Positions 15,489-23,457 of a stretch of 26,164 nt of DNA are shown piece by piece. The position numbers were made by a program, and so were the translations under genes. Source of the DNA: Methanobacteriota archaeon (GTDB lineage Archaea; Thermoplasmatota; Thermoplasmata; SG8-5; JAGLSY01); the NCBI GenBank assembly GCA_020697715.1, contig JAEHCO010000010.1, positions 1 through 26,164 of the forward strand, given 5' to 3'. The notes under the pieces are model-generated. The model saw only the letters and a program-made list of their open reading frames with translations. It made no database searches and was not told the DNA's origin. Numbering within the stretch: position 1 is the stretch's first letter; the number at the start of each line of letters is the position of its first letter.

Positions 15489-15962
15489 ATGAACACTATG
15501 AAAGCCATGTTCGGAGGAGGTTGCTTTTGGGGTATAGAAGAAGAATTCAGGAATGTCCCAGGAGTATTGGATACAAAAGTAGGTTATTCTGGAGGAGACA
15601 CCGAGAACCCCACATACAAAAAGGTCTGCAGCGGCATGACCGGCCACGCGGAAGTGGCTCTTGTCACCTATGATCCAGAAAAGGTGAGCTATGAGGAACT
15701 TCTCGATACCTTCTGGAACATACACGATCCAACAACTCTCAATTTGCAAGGCCCTGACATCGGCACACAATACCGTTCAGTAATATTTTATTTTGACGAT
15801 AGCCAGTTAGAAAAGGCGACCTTATCAAAAGATGATCTGCAACAAAGATCCAGCAGAGAGATCGTCACACAGATAAAACCAGCTGGCAAATTCTGGAAAG
15901 CGGAGGAATACCATCAACGCTACCGTCAGAAGGCCAGCTTCCCCGGATGTTGCACGGCATGA
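15489..15962 (+). CDS. msrA: Peptide methionine sulfoxide reductase A
   Basis: [32 protein letters not shown]. Confidence 0.97.
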
Positions 15963-16321
15963 GCCAGGAAGATGAACTGCGCGAGCATGTGATGAGAAGA
16001 AAGGGTACTGAACCCCCTTTCTCTGGCAAGTACCTCGCGGAGAATCGCCCAGGCGTGTACAAATGCGCTGGCTGCGGTCATGAATTATTCTTATCAGATT
16101 CCAAGTTCGATTCGGGATGCGGCTGGCCGAGCTTCGACCGACCAGCAGATGAAAGCGCTGTCACGACCAAGCCAGACCTAAGCCACATGACGGTCAGAAC
16201 CGAAGTCATCTGTCCAAAGTGTGGAGGCCATCTTGGCCATGTTTTCAATGACGGGCCGACCGAGACAGGCAAGCGGTATTGCATTAACTCGGTGGCGCTG
16301 GATCTTAGGGCGAATGACTAG
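15959..16321 (+). CDS. msrB: Peptide methionine sulfoxide reductase B
   Basis: GTEPPF, two Cxx[27 protein letters not shown]; ATGA overlap with the msrA stop. Confidence 0.97.
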
Positions 16322-16799
16322 GCCTTCTTCCACTCCCAGGATTGGCTCGATATTGCTGCTGTCCAGATATGTAATGTTCCACAACCTCGAAGCCCTGGCC
16401 AACGCTCCCATGATAGCATCCAGGAGCCCACAGGGCTTTCGGACACCACTTGACGAGCTGCGGGTATTTCTTACGCAGCTCGCGACTTGAATTCGCCTTG
16501 ATGGCCTCCACGATCCTGCTGGTAGCCAGCTTGGGGGAATATTGAATGAACAAATGGACATGATCCTCAGCCACCGCCATTTCCAGTATCTTAACATCCA
16601 GCACCTTGCACGTCCATCGAATTTGCCTCTCACATTCGATGGCCACCCCGCCTTTCAGCACCTTGGCGCGATACTTCGGCGTAAGGACAACATGACATGC
16701 CATCATGCTCGTGGTATGCCGGTCCTTTCTTTCAGCGAACTTACTGCCAGTACCTTTTTTGTATCGGTGCTTCGAGTGCTGAGACGGGGCTTTTGCCAT
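16305..16799 (-). mobile_element. tnpA: IS200/IS605-family Y1 HUH transposase, no tnpB
   Basis: HVVLTPKYR, HUH motif DHVHL, IKANSSR, LW..G, catalytic Tyr in HYISGQ; start set at MAKAP. Confidence 0.92.
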
Positions 16800-16961
16800 G
16801 GAACTGAGTATTCGATCGGTGGTATAAAAGGATGAATTGGGGGAGGGCGAAAGTATTTTGGGAATGGAGAGCCAGTGAACAAAATATAGTACTTTCGCTG
16901 ATCTGTGATGAGAGCTTATAAAGAAAGTCCGCATTTTTGTTGGGGTAATGCGGAAACCCTG

Positions 16962-16991
16962 GTAGCCGTTTGCCACGCTTGGCGAATGGCT
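16962..16991 (+). other. GTAG-led hairpin upstream of tnpA (candidate IS end or REP-like site)
   Basis: AGCCGTTTGCCA-CGCT-TGGCGAATGGCT 12-bp stem with G.T pairs. Confidence 0.6.
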
Positions 16992-17022
16992 GAAGACCTA
17001 CTGAACTCCCCAGGTCAAATCC
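16984..17022 (+). pseudogene. Deleted partial copy of the adjacent tRNA
   Basis: GAATGGC|TGAAGACCtACTGaA-CTCCCCAGGTC|AAATCC aligns colinearly to the tRNA with two internal deletions. Confidence 0.65.
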
Positions 17023-17056
17023 ATATATGCAACTCAGATAATAAATAGTTTCCTAT

Positions 17057-17144
17057 GCCGAGGTAGCCAAGCCAGGAATGGCGGTTGGTTGAAGACCAAC
17101 TGGATCTCCCCAGGTCTTCGCGGGTTCAAATCCCGTCCTCGGCG
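17057..17144 (+). tRNA. Type II tRNA: serine-like body with a GAA (Phe) anticodon
   Basis: Acceptor GCCGAGG/CCTCGGC with G73; D stem GCCA/TGGC; anticodon stem GTTGG/CCAAC with loop TTGAAGA; 19-nt variable arm with GATCT/AGGTC stem; T arm GCGGG-TTCAAAT-CCCGT. Confidence 0.88.
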
Positions 17145-17216
17145 GGGTTTCCACACAAGCCAGACTGACTGGGGCACGAGCAAAAGTCACGATCTGTATA
17201 GCACATACACATGGGC

Positions 17217-17276
17217 ATACCCCGACCTTACCGAGGCTTGGTACAGGTACAAGCCTCGTCTGTAAGGACGGGGTAT
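17217..17276. other. 60-nt inverted repeat between the tRNA and the first array gene
   Basis: Nested arms ATACCCCG/CGGGGTAT, CCTTAC/GTAAGG, CGAGGCTTG/CAAGCCTCG; followed by TTTATATA. Confidence 0.8.
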
Positions 17277-17327
17277 TTATATACACGTGTAGCTATACAT
17301 GTGTATCGTGACTTGCGAGGGAAGTGA

Positions 17328-18224
17328 TTGAACACCAAAGGAGATGTGCCAGTTAAGAAATATATTATGTTTTCTGATTTACCTATTAGTGGATTTTATA
17401 AATTCGATGATGTATTCCAAATGATACCACCACCAGATGACTGGCCTAAACCAAGAGCAACTATAGGACACCATCCAATATTAATAGAATACAAAGACGA
17501 AATCGCTGTAGAATTAATTGATCTATTAAGTGTTTTTTCAAATTACTACTTCTTTCAATATTCTAATAACCAAGCTTGGTTTATAGATCTGGCCAATCAT
17601 AAAAATGACTCAGTATGGGGTCAAGAAGTCTATAAATCAGATATAGTGAATCAGATCGAATTCGAAAGTGAAGATTTTTCTAAACATGAAAAGGAAATTG
17701 ATTTTATTGAGCATAATGAGTATTTTAATACTTATGCTGGCCGTTTAAGAACAGACCCAATTAATTTTCCAGAATCCCTTTCAGATTTATACAGAAAATA
17801 CCTATCTTTAGATACAGAAAAAAGAAAAGCCTATCGAAATGCCAGTATTCTTTTCAAATCAGGATTGTTGTTAAAAGATGAAAGGATAAATTTAAGTCTA
17901 GCCTATGTATCATTTATTTCCTGTATTGAAACACTGATTTATTATGAACATAAAGATGAGGATATTGAACGGTGTAAACATTGTGGCCAGTTAAGATACA
18001 GAACAACAAGAAAATTTAAAGATTTTATGGAAAAATATATTTCTAAGGATAAAGATTTTCAAAAATACAGTCAAGATATTTATAACATTAGAAGCCAGAT
18101 AATTCATAGAGGACAATTGCTAATTTCAGATGAAAAAATGTTTGAGTTGATGGACTCTGTCAAAATTGAATATCTAATTCGTTTGACAAGAATTACTATG
18201 GTTAACTGGCTAGTATCAAATTAA
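17328..18224 (+). CDS. HEPN-domain (ApeA-like) protein, possibly a defence RNase; array gene 1
   Basis: FISCIETL helix, CKHC insert, YNIRSQIIHRG (Rx4H) motif; AT-rich. Confidence 0.75.
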   Translation: MNTKGDVPVKKYIMFSDLPISGFYKFDDVFQMIPPPDDWPKPRATIGHHPILIEYKDEIAVELIDLLSVFSNYYFFQYSNNQAWFIDLANHKNDSVWGQEVYKSDIVNQIEFESEDFSKHEKEIDFIEHNEYFNTYAGRLRTDPINFPESLSDLYRKYLSLDTEKRKAYRNASILFKSGLLLKDERINLSLAYVSFISCIETLIYYEHKDEDIERCKHCGQLRYRTTRKFKDFMEKYISKDKDFQKYSQDIYNIRSQIIHRGQLLISDEKMFELMDSVKIEYLIRLTRITMVNWLVSN

Positions 18225-18553
18225 GCGTCCCGAGCAGGGGGGATTTTCGCAGGAAATTGGGCCAGCGCAGGGACAAGAGGGTGGGAGTTAGGCACATCTC
18301 CGTATACAGGGAACGACCGAGCTTCCGAGGAGCGAGATTATTATCGTATTGAGCGACGAGTTAGGATGCCTCGCTCGAAGTAACTGGCTAAGTTTCGAAG
18401 AAAATAGCCAGTTGCTGAGAGTTGGGACGAGCACAGCGAGCCCAATCCCGAGCCACGCAGGGACGGGGTTACAAAACGAAAGTCATATAAGTGAGACTTT
18501 CGATTCACTTGGGCAAGCGTAGTCATGCCCCGTAAAAAAGTCTGGCTGCCTAA
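18225..18553 (+). repeat. Structured intergenic repeat R0 (divergent left arm, one core)
   Basis: Shares the 5' hairpin, core GATGCCTCG...GGCAAG and right arm GTCATGCCCC..AGTCTGGCT with R1-R4. Confidence 0.93.
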
Positions 18554-18569
18554 TAATATGGTGGAGAAG

Positions 18570-19229
18570 ATGGTAAAAATAGCTGAAATTCCTAAATGGA
18601 TGTATATTGTGATTATTGCAATAATAGTGATTGGAATCATAAGTTTATATCCTGAATATTCTAATGATAACGAACAGGATGATGATGATCGTAGTATGCA
18701 TTATTATGGTGTAGAAATATCTTTAGAATATTCAGACAGTCCTATATACATTAATGACCTTAGTTTAAATGATTCAAATCTAAATAATCTAACAAATGAA
18801 ACATTTTCATTAATTATAGAAGTGGAATTGCCATCTGGCAATCAATCAGTAGTGTATCCATTTATGATAGTCCAATCAAATAATACTTGTGAAATAGTGC
18901 AAAATTATTCTATAAGATATGAGAATTATTCTTATTGGACAGATATGGTATTTTACAGCACAAATAGAACAGATGAAATATACAATTTTACGATTAGATG
19001 GGATATAAATTCTACAGACGCCCATATACAAAATCTATCGTTATTAGGCACATATAATGAGATTAAAGGATCCTTCTTTGTGGAATCCTCACCCTATTCA
19101 TCTAATGCTTCTGTTGATAATAAATATCTGGATATTTGCAATGTTGTAAATGAAAGATGGTACTCGGATATAATATTACCATTCAACATTAACATTCATA
19201 TTGAGCCATTTTTAGGAGGATCTAGTTGA
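18570..19229 (+). CDS. Membrane-anchored Asn-rich surface protein; array gene 2
   Basis: N-terminal TM helix, many N-x-S/T sequons; GGTGGAG RBS before ATG 18570. Confidence 0.8.
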   Translation: MVKIAEIPKWMYIVIIAIIVIGIISLYPEYSNDNEQDDDDRSMHYYGVEISLEYSDSPIYINDLSLNDSNLNNLTNETFSLIIEVELPSGNQSVVYPFMIVQSNNTCEIVQNYSIRYENYSYWTDMVFYSTNRTDEIYNFTIRWDINSTDAHIQNLSLLGTYNEIKGSFFVESSPYSSNASVDNKYLDICNVVNERWYSDIILPFNINIHIEPFLGGSS

Positions 19230-19234
19230 ATTAA

Positions 19235-19570
19235 CCGCTCCGAGCAGGGGGGATTTCCGCAGGAAATTGGGCCAGCACAGGAGCGGAAGGGTGGGCGTTT
19301 AGGTAAGCCAGACTAGTAGGGGGCATGACGTAGCGCGCCTGGAGCGAGTTTAATTCACATTCGACGCGAGCGACCCGTAGATGCCCCGCCCGAAGTTTTC
19401 CGACAGAGCAGTGACGCTTACAGCCAGGAAAACGAGGGTTGGGACGAGCACAGCGAGCCCAATCCTGAGCAACGCAAGGACGGGGTTACATAATGGAAAC
19501 GATTTTAAGTAACGTTTCCTATTCACTTAGGCAAGCGTAGTCATGCCCCCGTTAAGAAGTCTGGCTACCT
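19235..19570 (+). repeat. Structured intergenic repeat R1 (one core)
   Basis: CCGCTCC..GGAGCGG hairpin; long-range arms AGGTAAGCCAGACT..GGGGGCATGAC / GTCATGCCCCC..AGTCTGGCTACCT. Confidence 0.95.
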
Positions 19571-19594
19571 TACAAAAATGGTGGAAGAGAGAAA

Positions 19595-19933
19595 ATGGAT
19601 AAATCCTATAAAATTGCTTTCATAATTTACGTGATAATAGCATTGAGTATAATTTCAGCTGGCCTATATGCATATTTTTATTCAATAGAGGATCAAATTC
19701 AAGAGGTGGAAGAAGCGGCTCAAGAAGCTGGGCTTGGTTCAGCTTACACCAGTATTGATGGTCATCCCTTCAGAAACGTTGGAATTTTCTATATTACAAT
19801 GGGAGTATTCATGCTTATTATTGGAGTGATTAGTTATAAGAAAAAGAAGAGTGAAATATTCAAACCAGTCCGCTCCGAGCAGAAGGGTGAGCGAAGCGAG
19901 GGGTCAGCGGAGGAGCGGAAGGGTGGGAGTTAG
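19595..19933 (+). CDS. Two-TM membrane protein whose C-terminus reads into R2; array gene 3
   Basis: GGTGGAAG RBS; two hydrophobic helices; stop TAG lies inside the repeat. Confidence 0.8.
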   Translation: MDKSYKIAFIIYVIIALSIISAGLYAYFYSIEDQIQEVEEAAQEAGLGSAYTSIDGHPFRNVGIFYITMGVFMLIIGVISYKKKKSEIFKPVRSEQKGERSEGSAEERKGGS

Positions 19934-20507
19934 GTAAGCCAGACTAAAACGGGGCATGACAGCGCAGACTTCAGCGACGAGTTAGACGAGGAGAAAAGGA
20001 TGCCTCGCTCGAAGGAGCTGGCACATCGTAGATGGACAGATCCTGAAGAGTTGGGACGACCGAAGACGAGCTTGCTCGTCGAGGCACGGACAAATTGCGT
20101 AGCAATTAGTCCAGTGGCGCAGCGAGCCCAATCCCGAGCCACGCAGGGACGGGGAGGGTGCAACGAAAGTCATATAAGTGAGACTTTCGATTCACTTGGG
20201 CAAGGAGAAAAGCCAGACTACTGGCTATATCTCTACAATGGCTTTTTGACGCAGACCGGAGCGGGTACAATTTACATTCATTAATTATTCAAAACAATTG
20301 ACGCAAGCGACCCGTGATGCCTCGCTCGTAGATTTTCGTCCTTTCAGTGACGCCAGTAACCAGAAAATCAAGAGTTGGCACGAGCAAAGCGAGGCCAATC
20401 CTGAGCAACGCAAGGGCGAGGAGCAATAATGCGAATGCTTTTTAAGTACCATTCGCTATTCACTTAGGCAAGCGTAGTTATGCCCCCGTTAAGAAGTCTG
20501 GCTACCT
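19870..20507 (+). repeat. Structured intergenic repeat R2 (two cores, linker, 61-nt insert)
   Basis: Cores at 19999-20204 and 20316-20472. Confidence 0.95.
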
Positions 20508-20529
20508 AACAAAAATCGGTGGAAGAGAA

Positions 20530-21170
20530 GTGAAATATAATATTCTGAATCGGAGGAGTTATTTATCAACGGATCTAACGGATTAAATGAATCAAATGCA
20601 CACAATTCATCTGTCACAGATGAGAAGCCAATCAGTAGTTACAATAATAGCTCGAAACCTTCTCCTTCGATTATCGGCTCTTTCCTTTTTATATTAGGAT
20701 GTATAAGTGTGACTTTTTTATTATTATATTGCATTCTCATATCTGAGCGAAGCAATACTGTATATGAAGATTTAACTCTAATTTTCTTAGCTACAGGAAT
20801 TTTGCTAATAGGATTATATTTATTGGCAAAGACACCTCATGTGATTATATCATATATTTCAGTGTCATTAATGTGCTTTCTTTGGATTAATACCGTTATA
20901 GTTGGTATAATGTCTACAATGATTGGGACGTCTTACGGAATTATATCTGCACAAATTGAAGGCATGGCATACATTTTAATCACACTTCTAGCCATATTAA
21001 GTTCAAAATTAGCTTTTCAGCGAAGACAAACACATTGGATTATTATCGCAGGCGTATCAACTATTATTCTTGGGTTTATTATGCTGTTCTTCAGTGCGAT
21101 TTTCGTTATACTGGCTGTTATTTGTGTAGTTCTTCTTGCGGTATCGCAAAACCAATCAGAAATGGGATGA
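20530..21170 (+). CDS. Multi-pass membrane protein with an apparent 5' frameshift; array gene 4
   Basis: RBS GGTGGAAG then GTG 20530; the long frame is open from 20541 to 21170 but out of frame with that GTG; ORF track starts at 20709. Confidence 0.65.
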
Positions 21171-21188
21171 TTTGCGAATATAGCCAGT

Positions 21189-21804
21189 CCGCTCCGAGCA
21201 GAAGGGTGAGCGAAGCGAGGGGTCAGCGCAGGAGCGGAAGGGTGGGAGTTAGGTAAGCCAGACTAGTAGGGGGCATGACGTAGCGCGGCCTCAGCCGAGT
21301 TTATATTATTAGCAATGATTATTCAGATCCAGTGACGCAAGGCGTCCGTAGATGCCTCGCCGAAGAAATCTGTCCTATATTTGACGGCCAGTCAAGATTT
21401 CGCACGGTTGGGACGAGCACAGCGAGCCCAATCCCGAGCAACGCAGGGACGGGGTTACAAAACGAAAGTCATATAAGTGAGACTTTCGATTCACTTGGGC
21501 AAGGAGAAAAGCCAGACTACTGGCTGTATCTCTACAATGGCTTTTTGACGCAGACCGGAGCGTGTACAATCTCTCTACATTTTATCAGTATAAGATTTGA
21601 CGCAAGCGACACCGTGATGCCTCGCTCGTAGATTTCCGACAGAGCAGTGACGAGAGTAGCCAGGAAATCAAGAGTTGGGACGAGCGCCAGCGAGCCCAAT
21701 CCTGAGCAACGCAAGGGCGAGGAGCACTAATGCGAATGTATTTTAACTAACATTCGCTATTCACTTAGGCAAGCGTAGTCATGCCCCCCAGAAAAGTCTG
21801 GCTA
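21189..21804 (+). repeat. Structured intergenic repeat R3 (two cores and linker)
   Basis: Cores at 21351-21503 and 21616-21773; linker nearly identical to that of R2 apart from its AT-rich variable segment. Confidence 0.95.
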
Positions 21805-21831
21805 ACGTAAAATGGGAAGAGGTTAGAAGTA

Positions 21832-22353
21832 ATGGCACACCTTATAAAAACTCCAAAATCGGCATATTATGAAGATGATAAATATGAATCAAATATAATA
21901 TTAAATTTGTTACTAGTTAATGGTTTGGCTTGCTTTATTCCATATATATTTTGTTATTTTTACAACTTATATTTAATAACTGAACTTAGAAATACGATAT
22001 TTGATAATTTTCGACAAGAATCTTTCGCTATTCCAGATACCTCCTCAATTACTACTCAAATTGAACTCAACCAAATCATTATGATCATTACTGGATTGAT
22101 CTATTTTGTAATTGTAATCATGAGTGTGATATTAATAGTTAAAGATGCAAAAACATTACATGTTGGTGCAGCTTATTCTGGAGAAAGATTTTTTAGGCCA
22201 TTAACTTGGGAAATACATAGTTGGGGCATATTAACATTTTTCTTTTGGTGGTTCATTTTTCCTCTTTATGTATATCGCAGAAAAGAGATTTATGAAGTTA
22301 ATAAAGTAGCCTTTGATGCATATACACCAGCTCCGCTCCGAGCAGAAGGGTGA
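21832..22353 (+). CDS. Three-TM membrane protein ending inside R4; array gene 5
   Basis: Hydrophobic helices, FPLYVYRR tail, GAGG upstream; stop TGA lies inside the repeat. Confidence 0.8.
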   Translation: MAHLIKTPKSAYYEDDKYESNIILNLLLVNGLACFIPYIFCYFYNLYLITELRNTIFDNFRQESFAIPDTSSITTQIELNQIIMIITGLIYFVIVIMSVILIVKDAKTLHVGAAYSGERFFRPLTWEIHSWGILTFFFWWFIFPLYVYRRKEIYEVNKVAFDAYTPAPLRAEG

Positions 22354-22644
22354 GCGAAGCGAGGGGTCAGCGGAGGAGCGGAAGGGCGGGAGTTTAGGTA
22401 AGCCAGACTAGTAGGGGGCATGACAGCGCAGACTTCAGCGACGAGTTAGACGAGGAGTAAAAGGATGCCTCGCTCGAAGGAGCTGGCACATCGTAGATGG
22501 ACAGATCCTGAAGAGTTGGGACGAGCAAAGCGAGCCCAATCCCGAGCCACGCAGGGACGGGGAGGGTGCAACGAAAGTCATATAAGTGAGACTTTCGATT
22601 CATTTAGGCAAGCGTAGTCATACCCTCAAAAAAGTCTGGCTACT
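22333..22644 (+). repeat. Structured intergenic repeat R4 (one core)
   Basis: Nearly identical to the first half of R2 without the insert, followed by the right arm. Confidence 0.95.
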
Positions 22645-22667
22645 CCCAAATAATAGAGGTGGAAGAG

Positions 22668-22916
22668 ATGAAAACTCAGCTTAAATATCTAGGAGCCATT
22701 ATGGTCATTATAGGACTGATAATAGCATCTGGAGGTTTATATGAGGGGAGTTCTGTTAGGTTTAATACCACGATCTCGGAAGCAATGCCTACGATACTAA
22801 CTGGCATTGCCCTTTTTGTAGTTGGCTCAATGATGTGGTTATTCATTCAGGAGAGTGGAAAGAAGATGACTGAATCCGAGAAGAACTGGCTATCAGATGA
22901 AGAGGATAAGGAATAA
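22668..22916 (+). CDS. Small two-TM membrane protein; array gene 6
   Basis: GAGGTGGAAG RBS before ATG 22668; two TM helices. Confidence 0.8.
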   Translation: MKTQLKYLGAIMVIIGLIIASGGLYEGSSVRFNTTISEAMPTILTGIALFVVGSMMWLFIQESGKKMTESEKNWLSDEEDKE

Positions 22917-22956
22917 GCCCCTCTTAACAAGGGGGATCTCCATAAACAGGATATAC

Positions 22957-23457
22957 CTATGTTATCGTGATATCCTGATCCTTCTTCATGTCAAAGCCTG
23001 GCATGTCCAGACGAGCCTTGATCTCGAATTTTAATCTTGAATCTGTGTGTGTGGTCCCACCAGCGATGGCCCTCATCACGGCAACTCCGGCTTGAGCTCC
23101 CTCGCTCATCTCATTTGTCGTGGTTGTCTGCTGGGATCCAAGGATGTCCATGGGTATCATGATATTGAAATCATACGAGCCCTCTTTGTATTCCTTCTCT
23201 CCGTCCAATGGCATCTTGAACTTATGCACGGTCGTGTATTTTGTCTGGGTGCCTGATTTGTGATTGGAACCCCCACCAACAGCACCCGATGATGTGCGGA
23301 ACTTGTCTATCCTCGTGCCGATGAATTCGACGAACAGTTCCTTTCCCTCGGTTGGCTTCTTCAGCTTGATATTGACCTTGCCAGTGATCTCATCTCCTGG
23401 CTTGAAATTGTATTTATCTAATTGCAGTTCCATTGTTCCTTTTGAAAATAACCCCAT
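22957..23457 (-). CDS. Arrestin-N/Spo0M-like beta-sandwich protein
   Basis: LDK..FKPGDEITGKV.I.L, Y.F...IP and IKARLDMPG pattern. Confidence 0.65.
   Translation of the reverse strand: MGLFSKGTMELQLDKYNFKPGDEITGKVNIKLKKPTEGKELFVEFIGTRIDKFRTSSGAVGGGSNHKSGTQTKYTTVHKFKMPLDGEKEYKEGSYDFNIMIPMDILGSQQTTTTNEMSEGAQAGVAVMRAIAGGTTHTDSRLKFEIKARLDMPGFDMKKDQDITIT

Follow-up and report, generated by a model that had tools for sequence, protein, structure and literature searches.

Layout of the array behind the tRNA-Phe gene

Contig JAEHCO010000010.1 (assembly GCA_020697715.1), from a Thermoplasmata-type archaeon, carries an array in which AT-rich genes alternate with structured repeats behind a tRNA-Phe gene. 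The stretch analysed, called the window below, is the whole of this contig (C1; 26,164 nucleotides, forward strand) and belongs to a genome of 2.12 Mb, 34 contigs and about 45% GC, to which we refer as G000. We found that each unit of the array combines a conserved, folded backbone with a cassette. We tentatively interpret the locus as a chromosomal cassette platform of a non-integron kind, anchored at a tRNA-Phe(-like) gene, at which a Y1 HUH enzyme would process folded single-stranded sites; in our judgement this reading comes close to an even chance without quite reaching it.

The six open reading frames (ORFs) of the array all lie on the plus strand (17328-18224, 18525-19229, 19595-19933, 20709-21170, 21832-22353 and 22659-22916). 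When the likely starts are used, the six cargo genes have a GC content of 29-40%, whereas the repeat-bearing spacers and the seven backbone units between the genes have 45-56%. The ORF and GC data agree with the first-pass annotation of this DNA, which had described six co-oriented AT-rich genes alternating with GC-richer repeats. The repeats that it reported are real, but not in the size and number given, 310-640 bp and one per spacer: the spacers measure about 300-775 nt, and those named R2 and R3 hold two backbone units apiece with a gene-less mini-cassette of 76-77 nt between them.

The repeat families found in the window revealed the spacers to be mosaics of modules, with no single repeat unit. 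From 5' to 3' the modules are M1, a 3' arm, a short pre-core, the core, the hairpin P5, an invariant tail, a 5' arm, the motif GGTGGA and the start codon of the next gene. M1 is a GC hairpin (CCGCTCC GAGCAG ... GGAGCGG AAGGGTGGG) that opens with CCGAGCAG and starts at positions 18230, 19240, 19875, 21194 and 22338. The start of each repeat coincides with the upstream stop codon or precedes it, so that genes 3 and 5 terminate within M1, and the Shine-Dalgarno-like GGTGGA closes four of the five spacers; the earlier statement that the repeats start near or over the upstream stop and end before the ribosome-binding site was accurate. Sequence conservation drops sharply after the invariant tail ATTCACTT(G/A). 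The array unit is a backbone (pre-core, core, P5, ACTTG) plus a cassette (5' arm, Shine-Dalgarno motif, gene or genes or none, often M1, 3' arm). Backbone modules are about 180-240 nt long and end in ...ATTCACTTG, and the cassettes hold one AT-rich gene, several or none. As had been noted before, the whole array lies downstream of a tRNA, here tRNA-Phe(GAA) at 17056-17145, and of a HUH transposase, the Y1_Tnp ORF 16305-16976. The features are as follows; bit scores of backbone units refer to matches of the covariance model described below.

16308-16715, minus strand: Y1 HUH (IS200-type) transposase gene of the array-head clade (Pfam Y1_Tnp, 1e-28), the core of the listed ORF 16305-16976, whose N-terminal extension is spurious.
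16929-16953, plus strand: hairpin CCGCATT...AATGCGG between the Y1 gene and the tRNA, with tail AAACCCTGG, conserved at junction copies.
16960-17016, plus strand: degenerate partial tRNA-Phe copy, 5' half (D-arm, anticodon arm, intron), read from the sequence.
17056-17145, plus strand: tRNA-Phe(GAA) with intron, the array anchor (ARAGORN; Rfam tRNA, 55 bits).
17146-17315, plus strand: primary site, with AGCCAGACT (17158-17166), a long hairpin, the conserved ACAAGCCTCGTCTGTAAGGACGGGGTAT, TTTATATA (17276-17283) and the end GTGACTTG (17308-17315).
17316-18327, plus strand: cassette 1, with 5' arm GGAGATGTGCC (17340-17350), gene 1 (17328 or 17367 to 18224, an ORFan), M1 from 18230 and 3' arm GGCACATCTCC (18291-18301).
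18328-18511, plus strand: backbone unit 1, with pre-core, multi-helix core from 18365, P5 and ATTCACTTG (match 18345-18513, 160.7 bits).
18512-19340, plus strand: cassette 2, with 5' arm GTCATGCCCC...AGTCTGGCT, gene 2 (18570-19229; N-terminal transmembrane segment, 12 NxS/T), M1 and 3' arm AGCCAGACT...GGGGGCATGAC.
19341-19529, plus strand: backbone unit 2 (match 19358-19531, 186.7 bits).
19530-19966, plus strand: cassette 3, gene 19595-19933 with two transmembrane-like segments, ending in M1; matching arms.
19967-20198, plus strand: backbone unit 3a, with a hairpin inserted in P3 (match 19978-20200, 131 bits).
20199-20274, plus strand: gene-less mini-cassette with the local hairpin AGCCAG ACTA CTGGCT (repeat family D4, 89% identical to 21461-21610).
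20275-20466, plus strand: backbone unit 3b (match 20295-20468, 171.6 bits).
20467-21291, plus strand: cassette 4, gene 20709-21170 for a polytopic membrane protein, GTG start, short ORFs upstream; matching arms.
21292-21497, plus strand: backbone unit 4a (match 21329-21499, 166.8 bits).
21498-21574, plus strand: gene-less mini-cassette, a duplicate of 20199-20274 (repeat family D4) with its own hairpin AGCCAG ACTA CTGGCT.
21575-21767, plus strand: backbone unit 4b (match 21594-21769, 167.6 bits).
21768-22430, plus strand: cassette 5, gene 21832-22353 with two transmembrane-like segments, ending in M1; matching arms.
22431-22606, plus strand: backbone unit 5 (match 22442-22608, 155.5 bits).
22607-22950, plus strand: terminal cassette 6, gene 22668-22916, with a degenerate 5' arm, without a 3' arm and with a local GC hairpin at 22918-22935.

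The two mini-cassettes (20199-20274 and 21498-21574), which share about 89% identity, could be emptied cassettes or small RNA genes. Between the leader and Shine-Dalgarno motif of cassette 4 and the GTG codon listed as the start of its gene, the stretch 20524-20708 contains only short ORFs; gene 4 may be 5'-truncated or frameshifted. A solitary M1 hairpin module was also seen directly after an ordinary gene elsewhere in the genome (G000:C32:64938-64997), so M1 may act alone, for example as a 3'-end or terminator element. The first gene past the array (22957-23457, minus strand) encodes 166 aa with a weak match to an arrestin N-terminal domain (Pfam, 1.7e-5, just above the cut-off).

The backbone is a covarying, structured element

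The core folds into four helices at a junction, formed by the closing stems P1/P1b, the variable hairpin P2, P3 and P4, and P5 is a separate hairpin after the core with an AT-rich, TATA-like loop; together they comprise 34 pairs. In 15 backbone copies from G000, 89.5% of the cells were paired, compared with 36-55% in slid controls, and 16 pairs varied on both sides, a number matched by none of 500 shuffles. When 67 copies from 10 genomes were aligned by fitting them to a covariance model, a procedure that favours the structure, pairing reached 96.0% (40-53% in controls) and 28 of the 34 pairs varied on both sides (426 cells), including all eight pairs of P5. One core position was U.G in 46 of 63 copies. 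The covariance model of the core unit returned E-values of 1e-33 to 1e-51, and the pattern is far above chance. An Rfam search covering the window at E ≤ 1 returned the tRNA and, outside the array, two chance matches, and nothing else; the Rfam comparison proposed in the first-pass annotation thus yielded no family for the repeats. We conclude that this strongly covarying element of about 170 nt, without an Rfam counterpart, is new whatever the mechanism behind it.

Either the TATA-like loop or TTTATATA sits 21-32 nt upstream of the cassette boundary, which fits an explanation quite different from a cassette platform. The locus could be an island of expression modules, in which P5 is a promoter with a B recognition element (BRE) and TATA box, ACTTG the start site, the core a structured 3' untranslated region (UTR) or non-coding RNA, and the arms the complementary UTRs of a panhandle mRNA, the panhandle possibly serving stability, processing or circularisation; homologous recombination and gene conversion would reshuffle the units, and the Y1 enzyme would be a domesticated or trapped neighbour. 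The conserved U.G pair of the core is in keeping with this. So is the mosaicism of the spacers, where segments of 96-100% identity stand beside unrelated ones while a pair of paralogous genes is only about 75% identical: on comparison of the sequences this suggests concerted evolution of the backbones, as gene conversion would produce. On the other hand, a double-stranded promoter gives no reason for the covariation of all eight P5 pairs, and transcripts ending at the 3' arm would leave the covarying core in untranscribed DNA. We regard the expression-module explanation as the main rival of the cassette platform and as somewhat less probable than it.

By eye, the tail AAACCCTGG of the Y1-proximal hairpin (followed by TAGCC; 16947-16968) resembles both the tail of the primary site, GTGACTTG (17308-17316), and that of the backbone, ATTCACTTGG (18503-18512). 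Judged by this resemblance, the three may belong to one class of hairpin-plus-tail sites.

The arms of a cassette pair across its gene

Gene 1 is bracketed by its own complementary pair, GGAGATGTGCC at 17340-17350 and GGCACATCTCC at 18291-18301. In 41 gene-containing segments of seven arrays (G000 C1 and C4; G003 C46; G007 C3; G010 C75, C31 and C115), we compared the 75 nt directly following ACTTG with a stretch of 135 nt whose end lies 15 nt short of the next core. Pairing in cis had a mean of -49.0 kcal/mol (n = 41), compared with -34.0 kcal/mol for arms taken from different segments of one array (n = 264, P = 1.3e-12) and -37.1 kcal/mol for the arms inside one spacer (n = 34, P = 2e-5); dinucleotide-shuffled arms gave -33.7 and 112 ordinary G000 ORFs -28.7 kcal/mol. 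According to a hand count of the pairing matrices, the cis partner was the best of its row in 25 of the 41 segments, and most exceptions came from arrays such as the window and G010:C75, where one arm type recurs in many cassettes. In G007 and G010 the arm sequences were largely cassette-specific.

The 5' arm begins 0-5 nt past ACTTG in all arrays, the 3' arm stops about 30-45 nt (range 15-73) before the core, and 400-4400 nt separate the two. In 36 of 41 segments the sense strand gave more stable pairing than the complementary strand (Wilcoxon P = 7e-7), and 207 of the 1851 arm pairs were G.U. This bias speaks for the folding of one strand, either RNA or single-stranded DNA, and against duplex terminal repeats. 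The expression-module explanation draws support from the same observations, since the arms start at its putative start site and pair preferentially in the sense orientation with many G.U pairs.

The first-pass annotation had treated each large structured repeat as one site. This did not hold: the repeat is not a single hairpin but a conserved backbone with cassette-specific arms that pair across the gene. Two further readings were rejected. The type-A arms of a single spacer (TTAGGTAAGCCAGACT..GGGGGCATGAC and GTCATGCCCCC..AGTCTGGCTACCTAA) might have formed a basal stem around the core, or terminal inverted repeats, but the pairing in cis across the gene was stronger. The N-terminal 'KGDVP' shared by three ORFs, considered as a conserved protein motif, is the type-B 5' arm.

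Distribution of the backbone unit in one archaeal order

The search of this genome and its relatives with a covariance model, proposed in the first-pass annotation, matched the structured repeats in 19 of the 22 genomes of one uncultured Thermoplasmata-type order, including all seven high-quality genomes and all four families; no match occurred among 133 genomes sampled across 25 further families of the class. Spacer DNA matched 13 of 41 relatives, every one of them inside the same order. The matches to the covariance model were often clustered, with 29 in G010, 22 in G008, 16 in G003 and 14 in G007. Named contigs that matched a conserved motif of 19-20 nt came from metagenome-assembled genomes (MAGs) titled Thermoplasmata, Methanomassiliicoccales or 'Methanobacteriota archaeon', and the remaining matches were singles in GC-rich bacteria, at chance level. 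A scan of metagenome contigs with the G000-type motif found no loci. A second scan found 55, without any strain-level contrast; the multi-match loci among them share their match spacing with G010 contigs and so appear to be longer contigs of the same population.

G000 has 27 matches in total, almost all on array contigs: C1, C4 (an array of 4.9 kb bounded on either side by repeats) and five small, mainly repetitive contigs. Four matches are solo units on large contigs. Three solo units precede AT-rich genes (26-35% GC), and one of these three is a complete cassette with arms pairing at -54.3 kcal/mol and a pre-core remnant. Solo modules with P5 and leader that stand before AT-rich genes at three sites outside the array look promoter-like, which again speaks for expression modules. 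At G000:C11:879913-882100, one such promoter-like module, which has a type-B leader, stands before an islet of three AT-rich genes (30-35% GC), and a motif at the beginning of the second ORF is reminiscent of TIR domains. Contigs C4, C7, C8, C16, C19 and C24 (L021-L026) are unplaced, and C1 already spans the tRNA-Phe locus with both flanks. C4 and the small repeat contigs are either a second array or strain variants of the tRNA-Phe locus within the MAG.

This distribution bears on another explanation, namely that selfish miniature repeats, such as miniature inverted-repeat transposable elements (MITEs), repetitive extragenic palindromes (REPs) and their bacterial interspersed mosaic elements (BIMEs), or elements like palindrome-associated transposable elements (PATEs), spread between the genes of an already present AT-rich island integrated at tRNA-Phe, without any cassette logic. 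The repeats are indeed mosaic in a BIME-like manner, the type-A arms resemble terminal inverted repeats around the core of one spacer, a Y1 transposase is near, as in the pairing of REP-associated tyrosine transposases (RAYTs) with REPs, and the partial duplication of the tRNA suggests a past integration. However, the G000 copies are not dispersed but kept to array contigs and a few solo sites, so the scattering that would have refuted the first-pass interpretation was absent; fixed gene orders with repeats coming and going on their own were not seen either, but rather the reverse. Moreover, every repeat points the same way as the genes; the pairing of the arms spans the gene and not the repeat, and in G007 and G010 the arms are cassette-specific; and four families keep the one-to-one alternation and the tRNA anchoring with differing genes. 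Inspection by eye showed no target-site duplications, no systematic search for them having been made. We consider such a spread of miniature repeats very unlikely.

A conserved Y1 enzyme and tRNA junction head the arrays

The Y1 gene of the window is single-copy in G000. Pfam Y1_Tnp was present in 16 of the 22 genomes of the order, and the array-head clade (54-100% identity to the window copy, itself included) in 14 genomes; 13 of these 14 loci, from four families, have a tRNA-Phe(-like) gene, backbone units or both no more than about 3 kb away. In the first-pass annotation the HUH transposase was a mere neighbour, whereas we found it to be a conserved partner of the array in four families. 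The enzyme has an IS200/IS605-type HUH motif and a catalytic tyrosine; HUH (DHVHLF) and YIxxQ were invariant in 13 orthologues, and the closest solved structure is the IS608 TnpA (8e-24). Among genomes at least 90% complete, Y1 occurred in all seven of the order, mostly as a single copy, and elsewhere in the class in 43 of 144, with 1-17 copies, fragments and stop codons. Additional Y1 copies in G010, G005 and G020 are about 30% identical to the array-head clade and have canonical subterminal hairpins of their own, which makes them ordinary IS200 elements. For the array-head Y1 we found no convincing second subterminal hairpin; it has one conserved hairpin, on the tRNA side. A syntenic, mostly single-copy Y1 clade in Archaea is new whatever the mechanism.

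Other recombinases were sought without success. The first-pass annotation had seen no tyrosine integrase, and in G000, G003, G007, G010 and G005 no PF00589 gene was found at an array head; the sole G000 match is off-array, on contig C29. A tyrosine-integrase island was rejected, since no tyrosine recombinase is linked to the arrays of these five genomes. A TnpB/omega-RNA system was rejected likewise: PF07282 was above the cut-off in none of five high-quality genomes, and no Rfam match was found in the spacers. A two-unit backbone cluster in G007 (G007:C1:272519-277910) lies 2.6 kb from a PF00589 gene (G007:C1:277425), the one such gene located close to units, and may be part of an integrated element. 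The Y1 enzyme as the sole recombinase linked to the arrays is compatible with a trapped neighbour of expression modules, but that explanation leaves an intact and distinct array-head clade in four families unaccounted for.

A tRNA-Phe(-like) gene heads the arrays in G003, G007, G010, G012, G015, G005, G008 and G001. The CCGCATT...AATGCGG hairpin precedes all ten tRNA(-like) junction copies compared, from nine genomes, in one orientation relative to the tRNA, and by blastn was present in 8 of the 14 array-head Y1 loci. At the junction, hairpin, partial tRNA copy, tRNA and a long hairpin (with ACAAGCCTCGTCTGTAAGGGCGGGGTAT and a TATA-rich stretch) succeed one another in that order, and GTGACTTG leads over to the first cassette; primary-site elements follow 8 of the 10 tRNA(-like) copies.

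Several further observations concern this junction. The partial tRNA copy lies about 40 nt upstream of the real tRNA and, in every genome examined, tracks the intron sequence of the neighbouring tRNA, which suggests gene conversion or repeated regeneration of the duplication. The Y1-adjacent tRNAs of G005 (L122, 4498-4583), G008 (L123, 5191-5277) and G001 (L128, 1439-1525) are about 76-82% identical to tRNA-Phe and were read by ARAGORN as Leu (GAG or CAG), and G005 has a separate tRNA-Phe(GAA) on another contig (L133); the array can therefore sit behind a tRNA-Phe-like paralogue. In G003 (L017, 1232-1797) a tandem duplication of the Y1 3' end, hairpin, partial tRNA copy and tRNA-Phe places two tRNA-Phe genes at the array head. 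Genes for MsrA and MsrB, at 15489-16321 of the window, lie between the syntenic upstream gene and Y1; the congener G003 (L017) lacks them at this place.

Cargo turnover and repositioning of cassettes

The flanks of the window array are syntenic with G003, comprising the upstream gene, Y1, tRNA-Phe and the genes at 23.8-24.5 kb, and no cargo ORF of the window matched one of G003. When the DNA of the whole array was searched against four relatives, three congeners matched in the spacers only and the fourth, of the same family, did not match. Gene 1 had one distant homologue (37% identity) among 5.8 billion proteins, and gene 2 has a paralogue on contig C4. The array of G007 covers 15 kb within a contig of 195 kb and holds about 20 ORFs of 29-42% GC between flanking genes of 54-62% GC; it begins directly after a co-oriented tRNA-Phe, as do those of G010:C115 and G003.

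Six G007 segments have homologues of 82-91% identity in G010, G012, G013 and G014 (genus g5). The homology blocks of segments 6, 8 and 9 exceed the independently set boundaries by 4-7 nt at the start and by 15 nt at the end, whereas other segments have larger offsets (+37/+11 to +105, +289/+131 and -207/+77). As concerted evolution of the backbones alone can sharpen the ends of such blocks, differences in position are the stronger evidence. In G010 it is segment 6 that comes first behind tRNA-Phe. In G014:C21, in which no tRNA was detected, segment 8 comes after the first backbone unit that lies below the tRNA-proximal region. The order in G012:C6 is 11, x, y, part of 4, 10, compared with ...4...10, 11 in G007. 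In G014:C9, segment 10 adjoins the downstream flank and the array has one backbone-plus-cassette unit fewer than in G007, a loss expected from recombination between direct repeats and in this respect equally at home among expression modules. The comparison for gain, loss and reordering suggested in the first-pass annotation thus revealed wholly different cargo in three congeners and repositioned shared cassettes in genus g5. Separately, a homologue of the cargo of G007 cassette 3 (75% identical) was observed between Y1 and tRNA-Phe, upstream of the array head, at G010:C115:9119-9537 (L058).

A crude hydropathy scan detected transmembrane-like segments in five of the six window cargo products. 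PADLOC returned no match for any of the six, and Pfam gave only two sub-threshold matches to domains of unknown function. Of the defence and surface genes expected earlier, the surface part is plausible and the defence part was not borne out in the window. The cargo of C4 and G010 included one beta-helix/NosD match, and that of the G007 array three PIN toxins, a MazE/AbrB-type antitoxin, a weak sub-threshold ParE-like match and many ORFans.

A possible mechanism and the points against it

The integron-analogous system proposed in the first-pass annotation survives in its cassette layout, structured repeats and turnover of genes, but not in its single-site architecture, its HUH enzyme as bystander or its defence cargo. 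For the cassette platform that we favour, we infer a working model. With the sense strand in single-stranded form, the Y1 enzyme would nick it directly behind each P5-ACTTG, and the segment between consecutive ACTTG sites would leave as a single-stranded circle. Within the circle, the arms would close the backbone into a single large folded site, and the circle could re-enter at any ACTTG site, the primary site downstream of the tRNA being the starting point. Each cassette would receive its own promoter from the TATA-like, AT-rich P5 loop, and the pairing of arms in cis would be the counterpart of a rule known from integrons, where a cassette's own attC site includes the cassette's first bases. 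The Y1 TnpA family is described in PMC5027513 as acting by single-strand 'peel and paste', cutting and joining single-stranded DNA beside hairpins. In its full form the model amounts to a second, independently evolved 'integron', in which a domesticated Y1 captures, excises and reshuffles single-stranded circular cassettes at hairpin-ACTTG sites of a tRNA-Phe-anchored array, the cassettes bringing self-closing arms, a folded site and their own promoter. We think this possible, though we would stop short of calling it probable.

A number of observations weigh against a Y1-driven platform. The left-end geometry is unlike that of IS608-type elements, which have two local subterminal hairpins, so the proposed nicking is without precedent; and since the stem sequences of P5 vary, a recognising enzyme would need to read shape or the invariant tail. 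For the pairing of arms 400-4400 nt apart, an mRNA is a more natural setting than single-stranded DNA of the chromosome, and the conserved U.G pair of the core is typical of RNA. In the window and in G010:C75, where many cassettes have one arm type, pairing in cis was no better than in trans. The homology blocks of three shared cassettes stop where the downstream core starts, and the downstream backbone is not visibly co-inherited; concerted evolution of the repeats could hide its co-inheritance.

The enzyme itself raises further objections. G011 has the array-head Y1 clade, and no backbone unit was found in it. The orientation of Y1 relative to the array varies between genomes, with about half in each direction, while the tRNA-side hairpin stays constant relative to the tRNA as the Y1 gene flips; no convincing inverted repeats were found that would account for the flipping. 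The Y1 tree is poorly resolved and follows taxonomy only loosely, and it is compatible with vertical descent (4 label changes, minimum 3).

Comparison with known systems

The closest functional parallel is the sedentary chromosomal integron. Both have a fixed platform with co-oriented, mostly one-gene cassettes, variable ORFan-rich cargo of foreign composition (with toxin-antitoxin modules in a relative of G000), full cargo turnover between close species, structure-defined and strand-biased sites, and first cassette bases that pair with a site element at the cassette's own 3' side. In contrast, the array has no tyrosine integrase, its candidate enzyme is a Y1 HUH protein, it is anchored at a tRNA, each cassette seems to carry a promoter-like element, and no component shares sequence homology with the integron. 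The attC sites of integrons carry the boxes R''/L''...L'/R' with the consensus RYYYAAC / GTTRRRY and are hairpins of 57-141 nt with R and L boxes, whereas the sites of the array are multi-helix modules of about 180-240 nt with cassette-specific arms. Reading the repeats, we saw no R-box consensus; judged by size and architecture, they differ from attC sites. Having neither IntI nor attC-type sites, the array fails the defining tests of an integron, though it is integron-like in its working.

That a canonical integron, or a cluster of attC sites lacking an integron integrase (CALIN), was simply misread is suggested by the co-oriented cassettes, the ORFan-rich cargo and the toxin-antitoxin modules of the G007 array. 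It founders on the missing IntI, with the only PF00589 gene of G000 on another contig, and on multi-helix modules with distant arms in place of single hairpins; in addition, the archaeal integrons of PMC9668308 are canonical, and Thermoplasmata are absent from its main text. We give such a misreading next to no credence.

REPtrons (a RAYT with its REPs, REP doublets forming hairpins (REPINs) or BIMEs) share with the array a mostly single-copy Y1 gene that broadly tracks taxonomy and structured, mosaic repeats at gene ends. However, REPs are 20-40 nt long, number in the hundreds and are dispersed, whereas the array units are about 180 nt long, number in the tens and lie in tRNA-anchored arrays; REPs flank the RAYT gene in inverted orientation, whereas one hairpin flanks Y1 here; and REPs do not bound exchangeable gene cassettes. 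MITEs differ too, because the inverted arms of the array pair across a gene and not an element and its copies are arrayed, not dispersed.

The motifs of the array-head Y1 look IS200-type (subclass 1.1), which according to the text of PMC6006769 is the only Y1 class reported in Archaea, where it is multi-copy. Elements of the IS200/IS605 family and PATEs resemble the array in several ways: the Y1 is closest to IS608 TnpA, the succession of hairpin, about 9 nt and a sharp boundary recalls a right end, and action on one strand would yield co-oriented insertions. Unlike them, the array-head Y1 is without the canonical pair of subterminal hairpins, is single-copy in G000 and has no TnpB, while the array units carry unrelated cargo and the cassette ends pair over hundreds of nucleotides.

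The long-range 5'/3' helices that flank archaeal rRNAs and tRNAs are cut by the splicing endonuclease, and the ends are joined by RtcB. These processing stems share with the array long complementary flanks around a functional RNA and pairing on the sense strand. The array differs in enclosing protein-coding cassettes, and no canonical bulge-helix-bulge was recognisable by eye.

In the literature we found no description of such arrays; this search covered texts without the supplementary tables of PMC9668308 and PMC6006769, which could list Thermoplasmata records. We regard the architecture of the array as new and its mechanism as proposed.

At the practical level, the array repeats account for the breaks of these MAG assemblies at the locus. 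To our knowledge, integrons are the only known dedicated platforms for storing and shuffling single-gene cassettes, with one recombinase family and one kind of site. The present locus displays an integron-like genomic logic built from unrelated parts in an archaeal order. Even if it should work by homologous recombination together with control at the RNA level, the systematic complementarity of 5' and 3' ends around each cassette would stay new. If the Y1 enzyme drives the array, this would be a case of convergent evolution of gene capture and a new biological role for HUH nucleases. HUH chemistry would then underlie a cassette platform for the first time, Archaea would have their first domesticated RAYT-like enzyme, and a new tool for the insertion of single-stranded DNA cassettes might result.

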